Shown: one piece after another, positions 1 through 7,146 of the stretch
Layout: every line of letters begins with the position of its first letter
How positions within the stretch are numbered: the stretch's first letter is position 1
The notes under the pieces: model-generated
Told to the model about the DNA's origin: nothing
What the model saw: the letters and a program-made list of their open reading frames with translations, nothing else
Databases searched by the model: none
Origin: a virus
Taxonomy: Duplodnaviria; Heunggongvirae; Uroviricota; Caudoviricetes
Strand: one strand, 5' to 3'
DNA length: 12,532 nt
Virus record (IMG/VR): IMGVR_UViG_2548876964_000021
Translations under genes and position numbers: made by a program

Positions 1-357
1 GAGCAGGCGTTGTGGGCCCGTCGTCCGTCTGGCACCATCCATCACAGCGATAAAGGCTCTCAGTATGTGTCACTGGCCTATACGGAGCGACTAAAAGAAG
101 CCGGATTACTGGCATCAACAGGGAGTACAGGCGACTCGTATGACAACGCGATGGCTGAGAGCATCAATGGTCTTTACAAAGCGGAGGTAATACACCGTAA
201 GAGCTGGAAAAACCGTGCAGAAGTGGAACTGGCCACACTAACGTGGGTGGACTGGTATAACAATCGACGATTGCTGGGAAGGCTGGGCCATACTCCTCCG
301 GCAGAAGCAGAAAAAGCTTATTATGCTTCCATCGGAAACGATGATCTGGCAGCCTGA
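1..357 (+). CDS. IS3-family transposase OrfB, C-terminal fragment (5' partial; the real start lies outside the window)
   Basis: Translation ...HHSDKGSQYVSLAYTERLKEAGLLASTGSTGDSYDNAMAESINGLYKAEVIHRKSWKNRAEVELATLTWVDWYNNRRLLGRLGHTPPAEAEKAYYA... matches the C-terminal integrase core of IS3-family OrfB proteins, including the conserved Glu of the DDE triad in AESINGLYKAE. The frame is open back to base 1; the TTG at 10 chosen by the ORF track is not a true start. Confidence 0.85.
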   Translation, partial: EQALWARRPSGTIHHSDKGSQYVSLAYTERLKEAGLLASTGSTGDSYDNAMAESINGLYKAEVIHRKSWKNRAEVELATLTWVDWYNNRRLLGRLGHTPPAEAEKAYYASIGNDDLAA

Positions 358-399
358 GTTCACAGATAAAACACTCTCCAGGAAACCCGGGGCGGTTCA
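1..399 (+). mobile_element. Right-hand part of an IS3-family insertion sequence (IS629/IS1203-like), cut by the window edge
   Basis: The transposase frame is open from base 1. After its stop (355-357) the sequence ends ...CCCGGGGCGGTTCA at 399, i.e. a 5'-TG...CA-3' IS3-type terminus (reverse complement TGAACCGCCCCGGG...). The exact end at 399 is from recalled IS629 terminal sequence plus the TG/CA rule and was not verified. Confidence 0.65.
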
Positions 400-657
400 G
401 TTTTCGCCCTGTTCAGCCGACGTCAGACAACGTTGTTCGCCTTCAATCACTGTCGTTGGCTTCTGAACATCGCGGATCCAATATCTGACCGTTGCGCCGC
501 GCAAAAACGGGAATTTAGACCGGTATTTGAACGGCACCCGGATGAAACCCGGTTTAATTTCCACATCACCAAGTTCTAAATGCGTGATGTCCTTGCGTTT
601 TAGCAAATAGCGATCGGCTAAGGCTAACGCAAGAGCGCATACACCCCAGCCAATCAT
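397..657 (-). pseudogene. IS-truncated second gene of the lysis cassette (first 86 codons of a membrane-anchored protein; candidate antiholin, endolysin or spanin)
   Basis: The ATG at 657 overlaps the holin stop in an ATGA arrangement. The N-terminus MIGWGVCALALALADRYLLKRK is a hydrophobic anchor followed by basic residues. The frame runs into the IS terminus, and its stop codon TGA (399-397 on the minus strand) is the TGA of the IS end TGAACC..., so the native 3' part of the gene is missing. Confidence 0.5.
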
Positions 658-983
658 TTCCCACCTCCCTTTTTCACCAAACTTGTAAGAACATTCAGAA
701 TGCTATCGATATTCACTCGTTTCATCCCTGAAATCACCTCATGACCGTTATTGCTGGCTATCGTTACCATTAAGTACGTAATTGATAACTCCCAGCCCTC
801 GTGTTGCCCCAATAGGTACGCCACCGCGCCAGCTGTCACTGCAACAAAGATCTCCGTAACCAATCCCAACAAATTGCCAGACTGGCGACCGTCTCGGACA
901 TCCATCAGGAACGTGCCTATCCCACCAATTACTGAAAGCAGGAGCGCAATAGCAACTGGAGCTAATTCCTGTGTGTCAAGCAC
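654..983 (-). CDS. Holin, lambda S-like (109 aa, 2-3 transmembrane segments, basic C-terminus)
   Basis: GTG start at 983 preceded by AGGAGG with 6-nt spacing; an in-frame TGA upstream excludes a longer ORF. Predicted transmembrane segments: APVAIALLLSVIGGIGTFLM, LLGLVTEIFVAVTAGAVAYLL, LSITYLMVTIASNNG; C-terminal tail ...LVKKGGGK. The pattern resembles lambda S as recalled (GIG...RGR...ITSV...IGS...KRF). Four-base overlap with the downstream gene. Confidence 0.6.
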   Translation of the reverse strand: MLDTQELAPVAIALLLSVIGGIGTFLMDVRDGRQSGNLLGLVTEIFVAVTAGAVAYLLGQHEGWELSITYLMVTIASNNGHEVISGMKRVNIDSILNVLTSLVKKGGGK

Positions 984-989
984 AAGTTC

Positions 990-1009
990 CCTCCTACGTT
1001 GTCAGGAGG
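990..1009 (-). promoter_or_regulatory. 6-bp inverted repeat (CCTCCT-8 nt-AGGAGG) able to fold the holin Shine-Dalgarno into a hairpin
   Basis: Seen directly: 990-995 CCTCCT and 1004-1009 AGGAGG are reverse complements. On the minus-strand mRNA this gives CCUCCU-GACAACGU-AGGAGG-GAACUU-GUG, so the holin SD is the 3' arm of the stem. The same palindrome explains the apparent plus-strand SD at 1004-1009. Confidence 0.3.
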
Positions 1010-1011
1010 TA

Positions 1012-1248
1012 ATGGTATGCAAAGTAACTTCTCAACCGGTCATGCAAAGACAACAAGCGGAAAAAGAAAAGCAAAGCCTGCTACAGCTCGTCAGGGATAA
1101 AACTCAGCTCTGGGACTCACAGTTACGGCTAGGCATTATTTCCGTTCAGGGTAAACAAAAATTAACCGAGTGGATTCTCTATGCGCAGAAAGTCGAATCC
1201 ACGGATACCTCCATCCTTCCAGTAACGTTTCCCGAAAAGCCGGAATGA
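1012..1248 (+). CDS. Hypothetical small protein (79 aa); uncertain whether real or leader sequence of the holin operon
   Basis: ATG at 1012 in frame to TGA 1246-1248, translation MVCKVTSQPVMQRQQAEKEKQSLLQLVRDKTQLWDSQLRLGIISVQGKQKLTEWILYAQKVESTDTSILPVTFPEKPE. AGGAGG lies only 2 nt upstream (poor spacing) and is the complement of the holin-leader palindrome. Several rare codons (AGA, AGG, CTA, CGG). A GC-rich hairpin follows the stop. No homolog recognised. Confidence 0.25.
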   Translation: MVCKVTSQPVMQRQQAEKEKQSLLQLVRDKTQLWDSQLRLGIISVQGKQKLTEWILYAQKVESTDTSILPVTFPEKPE

Positions 1249-1251
1249 GGA

Positions 1252-1271
1252 AAGGCCCGGAATCGGGCCTT
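1252..1271. terminator. GC-rich hairpin (AAGGCCCG-GAAT-CGGGCCTT), possible terminator or RNA structural element
   Basis: Perfect 8-bp stem with a 4-nt loop, 4 nt after the stop of the 1012-1248 ORF and about 270 nt upstream of the holin start on the other strand. Flanking sequence is A/T-rich but there is no clean U-tract on either strand. Confidence 0.3.
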
Positions 1272-1582
1272 AATTAATATCTATAAGCTCAACAAATAAG
1301 AGCTAACAATTTTGTTAATTTCCTCTGGAAATAATGCATTGTGCTTATATATACCTGAAGCTATATTAAAGAGCGTCATGTAAAAAATAAACCAATCAAT
1401 TAAATCTATTTTCAACAAACAAGTCAAAATTTTTAACAGATATGTATAGAAATGGCAAGCCATAAATTAATAATGACATCCTTAATAAGTCTAAAGAAAC
1501 ACTAAATAGATAAAATATAAATTATTACATCCAAAAATATAGAAAGTGTTGGCAATCTTGCAACTCATTATCAATACAATAT

Positions 1583-1612
1583 TGACATCCCTTTAGCGCT
1601 CAGTTTAAAATT
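1583..1612 (+). promoter_or_regulatory. Candidate sigma70-type promoter for the acetyltransferase gene (TTGACA-18 nt-TAAAAT)
   Basis: TTGACA at 1583-1588 and TAAAAT at 1607-1612 within a 470-bp AT-rich upstream region. A second candidate -10 (TATAAT, 1688-1693) lacks a good -35. Sequence match only. Confidence 0.2.
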
Positions 1613-1738
1613 AACATTTGTGTTTACATTGTGCGTTGATTTAGTTTAGCAGGAACGCAGTAACACACTGATGATTATTGTTTTAATTATAATGTCAATA
1701 TATAAACATAGAAACCAAAAAATATAGGCAGTTGCAAT

Positions 1739-2311
1739 ATGTTATGTTACTTAATAGCTATTCACTTTGTCATCTTCGGGAATTCAAAAGCTCTATTGAG
1801 CTACTGGATGGCTGAAATCATCAGGCGTGAAAAAATGGATGTTTGGCGACTATTAAGAGAGAAGAAGCAGCGCAATCGGAATTTCCTTTTCTGGTGGAGA
1901 CTGGCTAATGAAATGTATATTAATGGCAATAAATTACATAAGAAAGCAGCCAGAAAGTTAAACAATAATATAATTAACAGATTTGGTTGCGAAATTGGAT
2001 TGGGCGCAAATATTGGAAAAGGTTTAACAATTCCCCATCATACTGGAATTGTTGTTCATTTTGCTGTTGATGCTGGTGAAAATCTGGTTTTGCGACAGAA
2101 TACTACCATTGGACAGGTAGATGGTGACATGCCTGGTTCAAGAGTAAAAATTGGTAATAACGTTGATATCGGAGCTAATTGTTGCATCATTGGATTATCA
2201 CGTAAAATTGGGGATAATGTAAAAATAGGTGCAATGTCTTTTATAAATAAAGATATACCATCGAACTGCACATATATAACAAAAAAGAGCGGTGTTGTAT
2301 TGTATAAATAG
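1739..2311 (+). CDS. Hexapeptide-repeat (left-handed beta-helix) O-acetyltransferase, serine acetyltransferase/WcaB-like; the start may be internal at 1808 or 1835
   Basis: Translation ...FLFWWRLANEMYINGNKLHKKAARKLNNNIINRFGCEIGLGANIGKGLTIPHHTGIVVHFAVDAGENLVLRQNTTIGQVDGDMPGSRVKIGNNVDIGANCCIIGLSRKIGDNVKIGAMSFINKDIPSNCTY... shows the SAT-type N-terminal helix, [LIV]-G-x-x-x-x hexapeptide repeats and a His in PHHTG at the catalytic position. Alignment with recalled CysE and WcaB sequences suggests the true start is the Met at 1835 (about 158 aa); the longest ORF begins at 1739. No strong SD at any candidate start. AT-rich and on the opposite strand to the phage genes. Confidence 0.85.
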   Translation: MLCYLIAIHFVIFGNSKALLSYWMAEIIRREKMDVWRLLREKKQRNRNFLFWWRLANEMYINGNKLHKKAARKLNNNIINRFGCEIGLGANIGKGLTIPHHTGIVVHFAVDAGENLVLRQNTTIGQVDGDMPGSRVKIGNNVDIGANCCIIGLSRKIGDNVKIGAMSFINKDIPSNCTYITKKSGVVLYK

Positions 2312-2319
2312 AGTACATG

Positions 2320-2347
2320 AAGCCATCAATATTTCTATCGATGGCTT
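2320..2347. terminator. Bidirectional rho-independent terminator candidate between the convergent acetyltransferase and tfa genes
   Basis: Inverted repeat AAGCCATC (2320-2327) / GATGGCTT (2340-2347) with a 12-nt loop. On the plus strand it is followed by TATCCTTTTATT; on the minus strand it lies 8 nt after the tfa stop and is followed by a U-rich stretch. Confidence 0.5.
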
Positions 2348-2354
2348 TATCCTT

Positions 2355-2933
2355 TTATTGCGGGGCGACTGGCCACTCAACATCCGATGCTACTGTTGTA
2401 TCAACACGATTCAACAATACCCGATATGTCTTCCATGCAGTCAGTAACGATGCCTCTTCCTCCGTCGCAATATCCAAATCTACGGCATCCTGAAGTGGCG
2501 CAATATGCTCACTGGCCATCTGCATCAGGCTGTTTTTTGTTTCTTCCGCCTTCCGGATCCGGAACAGTTTTTCTGCTTCTGCATCTTTCACCCAGGCTGT
2601 GCCGTTCCACTTCTGAAACTCCCCTTCCGGGGATAACCAGGTGACATTTTCCGGTAATGGGCCAAGTTCAGAAATAAATAACGCGTCGCCGGAAGCCACG
2701 TCATAGACGGTTTTTCCCCGATGGTCTTCAACGAGATTCCACGATGCCTCATCACTGTTGAAAACGGCCACGAAGCCAGCCGGAATATCTGGCGGGGCAA
2801 TATCGGTACTGTTTGCAGGCAGACCTGTATGAGGTGGAATGTATGCATCACCTTCACCAATAAACTCATTGGTTCCGGTCAGTAGATTATAAATTTTTAT
2901 GGTCCGTGATTGTTCACTCATTCTGAATGTCAT
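2355..2933 (-). CDS. tfa: Tail fibre assembly protein (lambda Tfa-like chaperone)
   Basis: 192 aa, [65 protein letters not shown]...LLNRVDT..., near-identical along its length to lambda Tfa as recalled. Its start overlaps the fibre stop (TAATG). Confidence 0.93.
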
Positions 2934-5782
2934 TATGCAAGCCTCACAATATAGTTAAATGCGATGTTTTTTACGGTGTTTTCTTCGTTACCCGTAGCGT
3001 TAACGGTGATGGTGTGTCCGTGGGGACCAATAATGACAGAATGGGCATGAGCACCAATGCCGATAGTGTGGTTATGGGCACCGATATATACATTGTGAGC
3101 ATGCCCGCCTGCGCTCGACGTGGTACCAGTACCTAACGCAGCGTTAAAACCGGCTGATACACCATTCCCCGCGCCAGTGTGACCAACAGGTATATTGTGT
3201 GAATGATTTCCAGCGCTATTCGTAGTTTTTGTGCCGTAATCAAATGAACTGGTCGTTTTAGTACCGTAATCAAACGACGATGTGGTTTTCGTCCCCAAAT
3301 CCGTACTGGATGCGCTGGCGCTGTGGGTGTGCGATTTAATGCCGTCCTGTTCCTGAGACAATACGGCACGACCACTGCCGGGCTTGCCCTTAATCGTCCA
3401 GCCACGCATATCAGGAATAACGCCTGACGGATAAGCCGCTGCAAGTTTCGGGTATGCAGATTTGTCAAAAGTCTGCCCCTGCATCAGGGCATAACCAGAC
3501 GGAACGGTATCTGATGGCCACGGGATTGGTGCGCCGACTGGGTAGCTTTCTGGTGGAAGATTTTTCGAGGTATAAACTTCTGCCCAGTCTTCCTCAAAAC
3601 CATAACCGTCTCTTGAAGAACGGTAGAACAGACCACCATTTCTGTAATGCGCCTTCATCTGCAAGGTCGGGCAACTTCCGACTCCGGTATAGAAGTTAAC
3701 CAGAATATAGCTGTCGGCAGAGCGAATGACATTGTAAGCGCCTGATTCGGCATTCCAGGGAACGCCCCCATCCGCATCGGCATACGTATCCGTTGCTCTT
3801 CTGGCAAAAGCAGCAACATGCGCAGCGGTTAAAGTGATATCAGTAGAACCATCAAACGAGACGCCATTGATAGTACATGCTGTCTGCAACTTGGTCGCTG
3901 TAGCCGCATTACCAGAGGTGTCCTGATCCCCTTTGGCATTGACGCCGGGAATTGAATCTTTTGACGTATAGACCTGCGCCCATTCAGACCAGTTGGCAGA
4001 ATCAGTATCACGCCGCGAACGGATATGTACGGGCGCATGGTCACCGCTCGTGCCACTCCAGCCAATGAATAACTCACCTTCGCCAGCAGCGGTGGCACCT
4101 TTAAGGTGAAGCACATTGCCATAGGTGGAAGGGTAGCCATTGTTGTATGCCTCATACAGCTGAATCCCGGATGTTCCCTGTGCATTCGCCTCTAGGGCCG
4201 TTACGCGACCGCGAGATACCAGAGTATTGATATTAATGTCAGCCGAACCATCGAATCTGACGCCATTAATGTTTATGGCTGTTTTTAATTTCGTCGCGGT
4301 GTCGGCGTTCCCTGTCAGCGCCCCGGTGATCCCACCGTTGAAAGTCTGGCGTGCACTCCATTTGTTAGCCGTGCTCAACAGGGGGATCTTTTCACCGCTT
4401 GTGCCAAGTTCTCTTAAATCAAGGTATTGGATAACAGCAAGGACGCTTGTTTTGGCCAGAATATCGCGACCGACTGACGTTAAGTCAGTCTGAGAAATAG
4501 TGTCTGTACCGGTAAAGTACGGCAATTTATTTGCGCCTGTAGCAAGACCAGCAAGCGCGGTTAAAGTTGCATCCAGAGGCTGTTTGCCTGCCAGCGCATT
4601 TGTCATTGTTGTCGCAAAGTTCGGGTCATTACCAAGTGCTGCGGCAAGCTCATTCAGGGTATCAAGAGCTTCTGGTGATGAACCAACCAATGCGGATATG
4701 GCAGCTCTTACATAAGCGGTCGTAGCAATCTGCGTGTTATTCGTACCCTGTGCAGCGGTAGGCGCAGTAGGTATTCCCGTTAATGCAGGACTTGCTAAAG
4801 GAGCTTTAAGAGCCAGAGCATTGTTGATAGTTGTGCTGAAATTCGGGTCGTTATTGATCGCAGCAGCTATTTCTTTAAGCGTATCCAGTGTGCCAGGTGC
4901 ACCGTTGATAAGTGCCGTTATAGCTGCCTTAACAAAGGCTGTATTTGCGATCTGCGTGCTATTTGTACCTTGCGCTGCCGTCGGCGCGGTTGGCGTTCCT
5001 GTCAGACTCGGGCTTTCTATTGGCGCTTTGGTATCAGCAAGATCTTTTACAGACTTAACGGCTTTAGGGGTAGCCGCCATTGTTTCGCTGTCGCTGTTAG
5101 TTTCGCTACTGAGCTGAACTAATCCCTTTTGCGTTGTGCTTGCATCCTGCGCCGTATACTTACTGTTCGCCAGATCGTAGGCTTTTTTAACTGCCAGCGA
5201 ACTTGCAGCAACATCACTTCTGCTACTGGTTACAGAGTCTGAAATATCAATGCCGATCGTGCGGTTAATACGCTCGGATGTATCAATCATCTCCTGGGTA
5301 ATGGCTGATACTCCAGCAGGGATATTCACCGTACAAACAAGCAGCTCCCCATCTCCTAACTGATATGAATCGGTATAGGTTCTGGTAACAAATTCAGCCG
5401 CATGAATATGTGACGCGGTATTAACCTGATAGGTATCCTCTCCAAGGAGGTATCTTCCCTTCAGCACAATTGCATATTTCTTGCCTGCACTAAGTGCAAG
5501 AGGAATATCCGTACATTGCTGAATAGTTACCTGGTAGAATTCACCAATATCCACCGACGCCGCGCCTGCGGTTTTATCTCCATCCACTGAGGTGATTAAC
5601 AGGTTCATCCCACCGCCAGGCTTAGGTAAGAAACCGGCATAAAATCCCGGGTCAACAATCCCCCTGAATTTTCGGTTTAGCGCGGCTGACAGATATGGTT
5701 CGTGGTATTGCACATCAGCAACCAGAGCCAACGACTCGGGTGATGGGTAAGTAACCGATGTAACAACTGTAACGTCATTCAT
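2933..5782 (-). CDS. Tail fibre protein (949 aa), mosaic: distinct N-terminal attachment domain, P2 H/T-even-type fibre repeats, lambda Stf-like C-terminal tip
   Basis: Start taken at the ATG at 5782 ([10 protein letters not shown]...), which has AAGGA 8 nt upstream and lies 8 nt after the upstream gene stop. Middle region ...[45 protein letters not shown]...[28 protein letters not shown]... resembles P2 H/T4 gp37 repeats. C-terminus ...[47 protein letters not shown]...[40 protein letters not shown] matches the lambda Stf C-terminus. Confidence 0.9.
3225..3314. repeat. Tandem 30-bp repeat (2 good copies plus 1 degenerate) inside the fibre tip coding region
   Basis: 3225-3254 gtttttgtgccgtaatcaaatgaactggtc; 3255-3284 gttttagtaccgtaatcaaacgacgatgtg; 3285-3314 degenerate. 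Encodes the [10 protein letters not shown] decapeptide repeats on the minus strand. Confidence 0.8.
4580..5020. repeat. Diverged tandem duplication of about 219 bp inside the fibre shaft coding region (approximate bounds)
   Basis: Two roughly 73-aa units, [74 protein letters not shown] and [75 protein letters not shown]; the matching DNA blocks are visible around 4600-4800 and 4820-5020. Confidence 0.75.
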
Positions 5783-6306: not shown

Positions 6307-7146
6307 TCAGGCGTCGCTATCCAGCAACAAATCATCTGCGCGGGTGCGATCAAACGTAGGTGTCGCTTTCACAATAGTGCCACCAGGCGTTGCGGTGATC
6401 GGGGCGCTAATCGACGTAACTCCAGTAAGCGAAGTTGTATCCGAAGTTTCAAACCAGCAGAATGCTTTTTCGGTATCAGAAATCTCGTTCAAAGTGATCA
6501 TGTCGGCCTGTTCATTTACAACAACCGACAAATAGAGCGTAAGCCCATCAAACACTATATGCAGTGGCAGTAGAGGCTTTACGAACTGATTAAACTTTCT
6601 GAGAATTTCTTCTGTAATTGCGGACTGATCTATCGTGCCAGTAATACCCATTGTCCGGGCCAGGTCGTTTATGGGAATACTGATCATCCCTCTGGAAGTC
6701 AGAAACATCTCGCCGAATGTGCCGCCGGTAGTCTCCAATGTGCTTTCTGGTATTAGAACTGTGCCATAGGGATGACGCTCAAGGTCCACCGGTGCATATA
6801 TCGGATCCCATAAAACAGAAATACCGTTAAATTCGCGGTAAATTGTCTGGTTTATAGGACGTTCAGTTCCCTTAAAGTGGATCTCATCAAGCCGCTGTTG
6901 TAACAACATCGGAACGGAAGATGAGTCCGAGGTTCTGATAGTAAAGAACTGGCCAAGTTCATTTGTCCTGGTCTCCAGATCCTCCTTGCTCATGGAGAAA
7001 ATAGACTTCCGGTTGGTAATTCGCTCCAACCATGGGTCAACAAAGGTGTCCATCATTGACTGAACCAAATCAGCCAATGATTTATAGAGCAATGACTTTT
7101 GCTTAGCTGATGTAAGCCGGTTATTAAACCAGGAACGCTGCATCAC
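6307..7146 (-). CDS. Putative baseplate / tail protein (279 aa)
   Basis: Start overlaps the stop of the 477-aa gene (ATGA), placing it in the same coupled operon between a J-like wedge protein and the fibre module. No specific motif recognised. Confidence 0.65.
   Translation of the reverse strand: MMQRSWFNNRLTSAKQKSLLYKSLADLVQSMMDTFVDPWLERITNRKSIFSMSKEDLETRTNELGQFFTIRTSDSSSVPMLLQQRLDEIHFKGTERPINQTIYREFNGISVLWDPIYAPVDLERHPYGTVLIPESTLETTGGTFGEMFLTSRGMISIPINDLARTMGITGTIDQSAITEEILRKFNQFVKPLLPLHIVFDGLTLYLSVVVNEQADMITLNEISDTEKAFCWFETSDTTSLTGVTSISAPITATPGGTIVKATPTFDRTRADDLLLDSDA

Follow-up and report, generated by a model that had tools for sequence, protein, structure and literature searches.

Several described systems resemble parts of the locus analyzed here. 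The classical P1 C and Mu G segments, host-range switches of the Cin/Gin type, hold fiber and chaperone genes only. P2 itself carries Z/fun, which blocks phage T5, at the moron site of P2-like phages. Receptor-blocking genes are linked to receptor-binding genes in T5, where llp lies beside oad, and in phi80 and N15, where cor lies beside fiber genes; in each case the exclusion function is kept next to the receptor-binding protein whose receptor is masked, and the products are lipoproteins that block FhuA. Prophage-borne acetyltransferases that alter surface glycans include Oac of Sf6, a membrane AT3 enzyme, and NeuO of prophage CUS-3, neither of them linked to a fiber chaperone gene. NeuO (PMC3046976) is a hexapeptide enzyme, as is the protein studied here, which belongs to another branch of that superfamily. 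NeaT, at P2 "moron position 2", shares with Z/fun the form of an AT-rich, single-gene, opposite-strand cargo directly after G, the fiber chaperone gene in P2-like prophages (PMC3573123); NeaT is a membrane Acyl_transf_3 protein (PF01757) with a tested virulence phenotype.

Here we analyze a window of 12,532 nt from a P1-like plasmid prophage, and within it an AT-rich island (positions 1272–2354) whose single gene encodes an acetyltransferase. The layout recalls NeaT and Z/fun, and the product is not homologous to NeaT. Our leading reading, to which we assign a probability of roughly 0.45, is that this is a lysogen-expressed O-acetyltransferase that would modify lipopolysaccharide (LPS), most probably its core, as a receptor mask; the arrangement would then parallel llp and cor, with a glycan-editing enzyme in place of a lipoprotein. 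In our literature searches the gene came up solely as cargo left unexplained, once in JL22 (PMC9603915) and once as ORF4 of phiNP (PMC6456863). The main text of two P2/P4 hotspot papers that we searched does not mention it, and we found no paper testing any member of the family.

An AT-Rich Island at the Center of a Former Invertible Segment

GC content is 31.3% across the island and 47.9% in the rest of the window, and the lowest value for any 1,079-bp segment outside the island, with the whole stretch scanned, is 42.3%. Within the island the upstream part is at 26.6% and the acetyltransferase gene at 35.1%. A sequence-only reading had described an AT-rich stretch of about 1.1 kb carrying a lone opposite-strand gene with an AT-rich upstream region and a hairpin at each end, and all of these features are present (Table 1): the island holds one intact ORF, on the strand opposite to tfa/U and S. 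Judged by the homology with P1, which continues to base 1275, the left hairpin is the native P1 U′/U intergenic terminator. The right hairpin, identical in P2-like prophages, sits between the convergent stops of the acetyltransferase gene and tfa/U, has a T-rich run after it on the + strand and is likely a terminator. The holin had been named as the left neighbor; the gene that adjoins is instead a remnant of U′, with lydA beyond it. The non-P1 block (1276–3843) exceeds the AT-rich part and takes in tfa and the fiber tip. The 463-bp leader is present in 65 Escherichia coli records, all P1-like plasmids and none a chromosome, and a search for it elsewhere returned matches on those 65 plasmids only. 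A 60-aa ORF within the leader (1281–1463) matched neither Pfam nor PHROG, and an Rfam search of the leader gave nothing credible.

Table 1. Features of the acetyltransferase locus and its surroundings, in window coordinates.
Feature	Position	Strand	Evidence and remarks
IS3-family element, right end	1–399	+	rve, rve_2 and rve_3 domains; transposase C terminus at 10–357; inserted in lydB
lydB	397–657	-	Truncated, 86/147 profile positions; Pfam LydB 1.4e-56
lydA holin	654–983	-	Phage_holin_3_3
U′ remnant, alternative tail-fiber chaperone	1012–1248	+	78 aa; Caudo_TAP 4.1e-18, profile positions 55–131 only
Left hairpin	1252–1271		GC-rich 8-bp stem, -15.1 kcal/mol (RNAfold); left edge of island
AT-rich leader	1276–1738	+	26.6% GC; upstream of acetyltransferase gene
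Acetyltransferase	1739–2311	+	190 aa; SAT/WcaB clade; PHROG 2154, PDB, AF2 and Foldseek evidence
Right hairpin	2317–2350		15-nt arms, 87% complementary, 4-nt loop, -17 kcal/mol
tfa, tail-fiber assembly chaperone, U position	2355–2933	-	Caudo_TAP 7.6e-43; convergent with acetyltransferase gene
S fiber C-terminal receptor-binding part, non-P1	2933–3843	-	blastn vs. P1 and vs. L005; 60-bp identity scan
Orphan cixR-like crossover site	4412–4431		Inside S; 1 mismatch to P1 cixR; pattern search

In P1 the convergent fiber-chaperone genes U′ and U are just 28 bp apart, and the island occupies the space between them. This comparison with a relative that lacks the island marks the gene as accessory, and the locus differs from one at which all relatives carry the gene with no compositional break. 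Bases 400–1043 are P1 backbone, at 99.2% identity, left of a deletion junction at 1043/1044. Homology of U′ with P1 begins at 1044, with bases 1044–1275 showing 86% identity to P1 positions 10115–10346 (the U′ 3′ end and intergenic region), and the U′ remnant marks the far arm of a former invertible C segment. In the window lineage a 2.87-kb deletion, a separate event, took out cin, lydC and Sv′ along with the 5′ portion of U′; inspection of the junction revealed no microhomology. Neither cixL nor cin is found in the window, so the C segment is frozen there. The first description, which put an insert between the lysis genes and tfa at the place of the P1 invertible segment and cin, was thus partly right. 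An accessory insert does occupy the site and the surroundings are a C-segment remnant, but the insert lies at the center of that remnant, the deletion is distinct from it, and relatives carry the gene together with cin, not in its place.

In JL22 both cix sites are present, the acetyltransferase gene lies between cixL and cixR, and cin is alongside. A cin gene with an inverted pair of cix sites, as expected of a Cin-invertible segment, was found in JL22 and in pEND_Eco 19025-2, not in the window, whose switch is dead through deletion of cin and cixL. Assemblies of natural isolates hold the gene-bearing segment in both orientations. The cargo-carrying C segment measures 5.44 kb, against 4.26 kb for the classical one. 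The textbook P1 invertible segment can, on this evidence, carry cargo.

A Hexapeptide Acetyltransferase of the SAT/WcaB Branch

The protein belongs to the hexapeptide (left-handed beta-helix) acyltransferase superfamily, as seen from a beta-helix model and from PDB sequence matches to serine acetyltransferases at E = 1e-13. Residues 13–190 match positions 3–181 of the 185 in PHROG 2154, a phage family of unknown function (E = 1.9e-83). The AF2 model (pLDDT 96.6), from a run with 104 sequences, has five N-terminal helices (residues 2–82) followed by a left-handed beta-helix; an earlier 19-sequence run gave a poor beta-helix (pLDDT 54–66). The top 50 Foldseek matches in the PDB (TM about 0.7) consist of serine acetyltransferases without exception, which bears out the fold first suggested from the sequence. 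The Pfam Hexapep score of the window protein (24.6 bits) is slightly under the cut-off of 27, and homologs carry PF00132. A hydrophobic N-terminal helix was considered as a membrane anchor and dropped; it is variable or absent in homologs, and in the model it lies packed within the helical domain.

The fold is shared with CysE, as are a helical N-domain and the catalytic residues: H100 and E85 align with H158 and D143, the catalytic His-Asp pair of E. coli CysE, H100 is near-invariant across the family, and the E85 column is D or E in all members. Published CysE structures assign serine binding to D92, D157, R192 and H193. Here D157 is replaced by P99, H193 stands opposite a gap, the R192 column varies among family members and the D92 region is absent. 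The N-domain, 82 residues long, is cut to five helices, the sequence can be aligned with CysE only from about residue 54–74, and a Pfam search of the window protein gave no SATase_N (PF06426) match. The C terminus, ...KKSGVVLYK, comes straight after the beta-helix, with no CysK-binding ...GDGI tail ending in Ile. Because it lacks the serine-binding residues, a complete N-terminal domain and the tail that binds CysK, the protein is not CysE, in line with the sequence-only reading, and its closest homologs are not housekeeping serine acetyltransferases with intact cysteine-synthase-binding tails. For this family, the label "serine acetyltransferase" used in databases misleads.

The closest characterized E. 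coli enzyme is WcaB, the colanic-acid O-acetyltransferase (E = 1e-16, with 36% identity across 109 aa; CysE gives 5e-11). It too is small, cytoplasmic and a hexapeptide acetyltransferase from the SAT-like branch, and HH-x-G and R-x-x-x-T-I-G motifs align between the two proteins. Unlike wcaB, the window gene is found on phages and plasmids outside the wca cluster, and its product has an 82-residue N-terminal helical domain, with a WWRLANEMY motif, that is particular to this family. Among NCBIfam models EpsC matches best, and the EpsC, CysE and WcaB models all score under their cut-offs (TIGR01172 for CysE, 65.6 bits vs. 210.65; PRK11132, 42 vs. 397; TIGR04016 for WcaB, 56.5 vs. 194.65). NeuO, the comparator offered earlier, is a poor one: it is absent from the PDB sequence matches at E ≤ 0.01, which include CysE-type and, more weakly, MAT/GAT-type enzymes.

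Predicted Expression Signals and Selection

The best site in a promoter scan, TTGACA-18-TAAAAT at 1582–1611, has 11/12 consensus matches and is conserved in JL22. P2-like alleles have TTGAAT-17-TATAAT, an AAGGAG Shine-Dalgarno sequence and a GTG start; the window allele has a weak Shine-Dalgarno sequence. Conservation of the N terminus and the P2-like AAGGAG/GTG pair back the long start codon. The internal start M33, annotated in JL22, was rejected on the family-wide conservation of the N-terminal 32 residues and the strong P2-like Shine-Dalgarno sequence at the long start; M24 is replaced by Ile in JL22. The acetyltransferase gene is under purifying selection (dN/dS 0.16–0.21 overall and 0.08–0.11 in the beta-helix) and, on this dN/dS evidence, is functional. 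Its layout is moron-like in the sequence features that can be seen, namely absence from P1, a GC break and a terminator hairpin, with the promoter being a consensus match only.

Co-transfer and Co-divergence with the Fiber Chaperone and Tip

Whereas the whole island is found in 65/5426 E. coli genomes, 686/5426 complete genomes have a match to the acetyltransferase gene, including O157:H7, O111, O121 and O104:H4 strains; the island region of the window is identical to that of the O111 plasmid pO111_2. O157 and O104 strains have P2-like prophages in which the gene occupies the slot after the fiber chaperone gene. Bases 1987–3366, which run from within the acetyltransferase gene (its 3′ two-thirds) through tfa into the fiber tip, are ~99.6% identical to a P2-like prophage, tfa itself is ~99.6% identical to that of the HUSEC2011 P2-like prophage, and a 60-bp identity scan finds fiber bases 2933–3544 common to P2-like prophages. 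A chaperone gene lies directly downstream in 65/79 viral loci and in 5/78 species-level genome loci, always convergent, and the identities of acetyltransferase and chaperone fall in step, from 100%/100% to 43%/37%. Two isolated phages, phiNP and Hafnia yong2, have this convergent layout as well. At the sequence level, these comparisons show co-transfer and co-divergence of the acetyltransferase gene with tfa and the fiber tip. The receptor of phiNP is LPS, as demonstrated with core-biosynthesis (waa) mutants (PMC6456863).

Homologs in LPS-Core Gene Clusters and a Proposed Function

Outside phages, 14/78 species-level loci lie in or adjoin LPS-core genes, and homologs with 41–52% identity occur in waa/core contexts in Leminorella, Pantoea, Mixta, Orbaceae and Halopseudomonas; the window gene itself lies outside any waa operon. 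In Leminorella the acetyltransferase gene follows waaQ-G-P-B-O-Y-Z as the last gene of the waaQ operon, facing a convergent waaL, and in Pantoea and Mixta a homolog adjoins waaQGPOY. The order in Halopseudomonas/Pseudomonas is hldE, msbA, a Kdo-kinase-family gene and the acetyltransferase gene; the Orbaceae homolog has GT9 and GT25 neighbors, and that of Pseudomonas jinjuensis adjoins an O-antigen ligase gene. In Photorhabdus, fiber genes are followed by the acetyltransferase gene and then a WaaZ-like gene. About 58/78 chromosomal homologs stand in unrelated contexts.

The surface-modification or exclusion role proposed from the sequence is strengthened, as a candidate role, because the linkage to the fiber chaperone is conserved and homologs occur in LPS-core clusters. 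On this model the gene would be carried as a moron, that is, as non-essential phage cargo with its own signals, and would be transcribed in the lysogen, probably from its own sigma-70-type promoter, up to the hairpin held in common with tfa. Its product would be an acetyl-CoA-dependent cytoplasmic O-acetyltransferase of the SAT/WcaB branch of the hexapeptide superfamily, acting on a sugar of nascent LPS at the cytoplasmic face of the inner membrane, with the core oligosaccharide as the most probable substrate. Acetylation would alter the surface structure bound by the co-inherited fiber tip, and the lysogen would gain receptor masking, as superinfection exclusion or as reduced re-adsorption of progeny to debris. 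Lysogen expression, the acceptor sugar and the exclusion phenotype are the parts of this model that we infer. E. coli strains with the gene span many O serotypes, O157, O111, O121 and O104 among them, which would favor a conserved acceptor over a particular O-unit. We know of no O-acetyl group reported on the E. coli core types. Weighing against the LPS-core reading are the unrelated contexts of ~58/78 homologs, the lacZYA-like layout in Mixta and the plasmid paralogs (both described below), and the weak Shine-Dalgarno sequence.

Other substrates would suit parts of the evidence. The enzyme might acetylate a soluble small molecule (a glycoside, xenobiotic, toxin or signal) as a fitness, defense or anti-defense gene of mobile elements, with the tfa site being a permissive hotspot. 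Paralogs with 65% nucleotide identity lie on IncI/K/FIB plasmids beside replication, toxin-antitoxin and FinO-like genes, with no link to fibers or LPS; many homologs are lone chromosomal genes; and the site is a known variable moron position in P2-like phages (PMC3573123). In Mixta, moreover, a GH2 glycosidase gene lies upstream of the acetyltransferase gene, which overlaps the gene for an MFS sugar transporter and seems operonic with both, a layout that recalls lacA in lacZYA and points to a soluble glycoside substrate. We nevertheless consider this unlikely, if well worth keeping in view. A PADLOC search of the acetyltransferase matched no family at E ≤ 1, so it is not a catalogued defense protein, and a hotspot alone explains neither the members within waa operons nor the co-divergence of acetyltransferase and chaperone to ~40% across P1-like, P2-like, phiNP and Hafnia phages. 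Somewhat less plausible is classical lysogenic conversion through another envelope glycan at the cytoplasmic face, such as colanic acid, enterobacterial common antigen, the O-unit or capsule. The substrate of WcaB, the nearest characterized E. coli relative, is the repeat unit of colanic acid in its undecaprenyl-linked form, the NCBIfam family that matches best is EpsC, an exopolysaccharide-cluster family, and Halopseudomonas homologs adjoin NeuB-type nonulosonic-acid genes. However, the EpsC/WcaB family scores fall far under their cut-offs, the recurrent chromosomal context is waa/core and not wca, wec or O-antigen clusters, and the gene is spread over unrelated O serotypes.

Two further explanations fit less well. 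A minimal true serine O-acetyltransferase, free of feedback and CysK control, could raise O-acetylserine or cysteine, or induce the CysB regulon. The database name, the best PDB sequence and fold matches (to CysE) and the retained catalytic His and acid would agree with it, but the altered or missing serine-binding positions and tail, the low TIGR01172 score, the lack of a SATase_N match and the presence of family members in waa operons make it very improbable. The target could also be the virion, with the fiber or chaperone acetylated or the enzyme needed to assemble this fiber type, as strict adjacency to tfa and the fiber tip and co-transfer with them might suggest. That seems most improbable, given a gene on the strand opposite to the late fiber operon with sigma-70-like and not late-promoter signals, homologs that lie in waa operons, are plasmid-borne or stand alone with no phage neighbors, and nothing between U′ and U in P1.

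A stronger form of the LPS-core reading is doubtful but can be stated: the enzyme may be a "receptor editor" paired with the fiber tip, O-acetylating the LPS-core epitope of that tip, and in intact C segments the strength of exclusion would be coupled to fiber choice, with segment inversion flipping the gene relative to cin read-through and late transcription. As far as we know, O-acetylation of an LPS-core epitope has not been described for E. coli cores. If this stronger form holds, phages with an intact C segment would have the first cargo gene in a Cin/Gin-type host-range switch. If the LPS-core reading itself is true, a common accessory gene of E. coli would be an LPS-modifying lysogenic-conversion factor that moves with the fiber tip whose receptor it masks. 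This would bear on host-range prediction for P1- and P2-type phages, on P1 as a delivery vector, on resistance in phage therapy and possibly on LPS antigenicity in Shiga-toxin-producing E. coli.

Other Features of the Window

Tandem Repeats Finder returned zero DNA-level tandem repeats in S, although the peptide FDYGTKTT recurs; the translated S fiber has an HxH-rich tip. At the left end of the window, bases 1–399 give a 94.7% match to a region of O157 strain SS17 with an IS3-family transposase, and lydB is uninterrupted at the matching position in pO111_2.

Anatomy of the AT-rich island

The AT-rich island (window positions 1276–2354) has a GC content of 31.4% (26.6% in its upstream 463 bp, the leader, and 35.1% in the gene), compared with 47.9% for the rest of the window, where the lowest value for any other 1,079-bp stretch is 42.3%. 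The sequence-only reading had described such an island with a lone gene and a hairpin at either end. All three are confirmed: the compositional break is pronounced, a single intact ORF converges on the tail-fibre chaperone gene tfa/U, and both hairpins are present.

Features of the acetyltransferase locus, in window coordinates
Feature	Position	Strand	Details
IS3-family element	1–399		transposase C-terminus at 10–357
U′ remnant, 78 aa	1012–1248		Caudo_TAP (chaperone domain) positions 55–131
Left hairpin	1252–1271		−15.1 kcal/mol
Promoter-like site, window allele	1582–1611		TTGACA-18-TAAAAT
Acetyltransferase gene (sole intact ORF of island)	1739–2311	+	convergent with tfa/U
Right hairpin	2317–2350		−17 kcal/mol
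Chaperone gene tfa/U	2355–2933	−	convergent with 1739–2311
Orphan cixR-like site	4412–4431		

Rearrangement of a P1-like plasmid prophage

Window positions 1000–2700 are 100% identical to ~16 E. coli plasmids of 92–102 kb, including pO111_2 of O111:H− strain 11128, and P1 genes surround the island (lydA/lydB, darA, S, R, gene 16, bplA, and sit), indicating that the window belongs to a P1-like (Punavirus) plasmid prophage. In blastn comparison with P1, positions 400–1043 correspond to lydB/lydA and their upstream region, and 1044–1275 to the last 200 bp of the alternative chaperone gene U′ and the U′/U intergenic region, so that the left hairpin comes from P1 itself. Positions 1276–3843 have no P1 counterpart, and homology returns at 3844, within the fibre gene S; in P1 itself, 28 bp separate the stop codons of U′ and U. 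Two separate events thus set the window apart from P1: a foreign block came to occupy the middle of the invertible C segment, the P1 host-range switch, and a 2.87-kb deletion took lydC, the recombinase gene cin, the crossover site cixL, the fibre gene Sv′, and the 5′ part of U′. Exactly the same deletion junction occurs in 49/65 island-bearing E. coli plasmids.

Homology to P1 puts LPdar, the late promoter of the lydA-lydB-darA operon, at 1012–1030 (−). There it directly adjoins the 1043/1044 deletion junction and overlaps the U′ remnant ORF at its start, so the first codons of this ORF are not U′-derived. The IS3-family element is inserted in lydB (397–657), which encodes the LydA-holin antagonist, and leaves 86 of about 147 residues; pO111_2, otherwise identical in this region, lacks the insertion and has lydB intact. 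Antiholin loss could alter the timing of lysis. The protein at 7143–8576 (−; 18144–19577 in compared locus L001) is baseplate protein BplA by position and by JL22 and P1 annotations, and its RefSeq name, "bleomycin hydrolase," is probably a misannotation.

JL22, a P1-like phage with an intact C segment, has the order cin, cixL, Sv′, U′, island (95% identity), tfa, Sv, cixR, placing the acetyltransferase gene inside a 5.44-kb invertible segment. The same type of arrangement is found in 15 complete E. coli genomes, with the match beginning at cin, as in JL22, in 11 and at cixL in 4. In pEND_Eco 19025-2, the one of these four examined, the segment is inverted: S and Sv′ form a fusion, U′ is followed by the acetyltransferase gene in the same direction, and cin is found at the opposite side. 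The cargo-bearing segment therefore exists in both orientations among natural isolates. The JL22 paper mentions the gene and calls the reason for its presence unknown (PMC9603915).

A cassette shared with P2-like prophages

The gene is far more widespread than the island, with matches in 686/5,426 E. coli genomes, mainly chromosomal; the 463-bp leader was found only on the P1-like plasmids. In O157:H7 SS17 and O104:H4 HUSEC2011 the gene lies in P2-like prophages, right after the fibre chaperone gene and convergent with it, a variable slot in P2-like phages that Wiles et al. described as "moron position 2" and that in CFT073 holds the acyltransferase gene neaT (PMC3573123). Both genes are AT-rich and occupy the same slot, but they are unrelated. 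In a 60-bp scan, identity to the HUSEC2011 prophage is 68% at 1747–1866, about 89% at 1867–1986, and about 99.6% at 1987–3366, so the 3′ two-thirds of the gene make up one recently exchanged block together with the terminator, tfa, and the fibre tip, and its breakpoint falls inside the acetyltransferase gene. The P2-like alleles have a promoter-like site of their own (TTGAAT-17-TATAAT) and an AAGGAG Shine-Dalgarno ahead of a GTG that aligns with ATG 1739.

Several smaller features accompany this region. Relative to canonical P2, the SS17 and HUSEC2011 prophages have the FI, FII, E, E′, T, U block (sheath to gpU) inverted with respect to V-W-J-I-H-G, so that both tail operons point towards the acetyltransferase gene from either side; on the far side, gene D is truncated. 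The fibre tip in S (about 3190–3275, −) contains about 2.5 copies of a repeated peptide and, after them, many HxH motifs like the metal-binding ones of T4 gp37-type tips. Tandem Repeats Finder detected no DNA-level repeat there, and the adjacent 3545–3843 is where the window and JL22 differ in the length of S. Rfam RF02111 ("IS009") matches at full length wholly within the tfa CDS (2392–2590, −; 192 bits, gathering score 117), and this "RNA family" may be no more than a model of the 3′ half of tfa genes, which is conserved in prophages.

The linkage of acetyltransferase and chaperone is old. A Caudo_TAP gene lies within 300 bp downstream in 65/79 IMG/VR loci with a family member and in 5/78 species-level genome loci, convergent every time, and the identities of the two proteins fall in parallel from 100%/100% to 43%/37% in Gilliamella prophages. 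The isolated phages phiNP (Citrobacter rodentium) and yong2 (Hafnia) have the same order of acetyltransferase, chaperone, and tail-collar fibre, and the phiNP receptor was demonstrated to be LPS with waa mutants (PMC6456863).

Protein family and predicted fold

The 190-aa product belongs to PHROG 2154 (E = 1.9e-83), which has no assigned function, and PADLOC gave no match to it. NCBIfam scores are all below cut-off (EpsC 77.5 bits against 150, CysE 65.6 against 210.65, WcaB 56.5 against 194.65), and among characterised E. coli enzymes WcaB is the nearest. The family is small, with about 80 representatives of 50%-identity clusters at E ≤ 1e-30 among 1.84 billion; most of them belong to Enterobacterales, Orbaceae, and Pseudomonas/Halopseudomonas. 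An AF2 model (104-sequence alignment, pLDDT 96.6) has five helices (residues 2–82) followed by a left-handed beta-helix, and its top 50 PDB fold matches are without exception serine acetyltransferases, bearing out the fold that had been read from the sequence.

H100 and E85 align with catalytic H158 and D143 of E. coli CysE. In contrast, CysE D157 is replaced by proline, H193 falls at a gap, the column of R192 varies within the family, and the region bearing D92 is missing. The CysK-binding C-terminal tail is likewise missing. dN/dS against JL22 and P2-like alleles is 0.16–0.21 (0.08–0.11 in the beta-helix), indicating purifying selection. Retention of the catalytic pair, loss of the other CysE features, and this constraint indicate an active-looking O-acetyltransferase of the SAT/WcaB branch rather than a serine acetyltransferase, and the latter name is wrong for the family.

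Homologue neighbourhoods and proposed function

For the neighbourhood survey, ORFs were called in 78 species-level loci, and neighbours were clustered, annotated with Pfam, and searched by phmmer with E. coli K-12 Waa proteins. LPS-core genes surround or adjoin the homologue in 14/78 loci, in at least five or six independent arrangements, which by our own estimate is far above expectation for genes making up well under 1% of a genome. In Leminorella grimontii the homologue ends waaQ-G-P-B-O-Y-Z, 39 bp after waaZ and convergent with waaL; in Ca. Pantoea superficialis and Mixta it is immediately upstream of waaQGPOY; and in five Halopseudomonas/Pseudomonas species it follows hldE, msbA, and a Kdo-kinase-family gene. 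Other neighbours are GT9 heptosyltransferase and GT25 genes (Orbaceae), an O-antigen ligase gene (Pseudomonas jinjuensis), Kdo-kinase-family genes (Dechloromonas), and, in Photorhabdus, tail-fibre genes on one side and a WaaZ-like gene on the other. The Photorhabdus namnaonensis member sits between tail-collar fibre genes (one fused to Caudo_TAP) and a WaaZ-like/MptE-like gene, a layout that suggests two-enzyme LPS-modifying cargo beside fibre genes.

P1 and P2 fibres bind the LPS core, which is assembled on the cytoplasmic side of the inner membrane, already the site of action of soluble enzymes such as WaaP and WaaY. We infer expression, substrate, and phenotype, and propose with a probability of roughly 0.45 that the enzyme O-acetylates LPS, probably its core, because branch, moron layout, fibre-tip linkage, waa homologues, and site of core assembly fit together. 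The enzyme, cytoplasmic and of the sugar-acetylating branch, is laid out as an independently expressed moron (non-essential cargo with its own signals) that stays beside, and is exchanged with, receptor-binding tip and chaperone in phage groups with LPS-core-binding fibres; homologues are built into waa operons; and acetylated LPS would mask or alter the receptor for cognate-type fibres. A more novel reading, in which the enzyme is a tip-specific LPS-core editor with its expression tied to fibre switching, is improbable.

We ranked the rival explanations by weight. The foremost, although unlikely, is a soluble acetyltransferase of small molecules or glycosides whose genomic position reflects only a hotspot. 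There are counter-examples to the LPS-core contexts: about 58 loci are in unrelated surroundings; the Mixta homologue overlaps a gene for an MFS sugar transporter, downstream of a GH2 glycosidase, in a lacZYA-like arrangement; and on IncI/K/FIB plasmids, paralogues of 65% nucleotide identity lie by repA, yacAB, and a FinO-like gene. Another envelope glycan as acceptor is somewhat less probable still. A true minimal serine acetyltransferase is improbable, and a virion-directed function is the least credible of all.

AT-rich cargo genes for surface modification, situated after the fibre chaperone gene of a prophage, are already familiar. The present gene was previously annotated and mentioned as unexplained cargo (PMC9603915, PMC6456863), and no experimental work on a family member turned up in our literature search. 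New here are the cassette of fibre tip, chaperone, and acetyltransferase with its deep linkage, its place within a working Cin-invertible segment, the waa-cluster homologues pointing to LPS, and the misnaming of the family.

Two further settings stand out. A 55%-identical member, indexed in 594 blocks of the collection, lies at the end of another myovirus-like prophage (HP1_ORF34, tail-fibre, and DUF4376 genes) on E. coli chromosomes, after a hok-like toxin gene and before a heavy-metal (HMA-domain) P-type ATPase gene. IncFIB, IncK2/Z, and large IncF-type plasmids carry the paralogue under the name "serine acetyltransferase," regularly adjoining repA, yacAB or a Phd/RelE toxin-antitoxin pair, and a ProQ/FinO-family gene (IncI-complex and IncF). 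IncI thin pili also bind the LPS core, which may or may not be relevant. On some APEC plasmids the paralogue is truncated by IS1.
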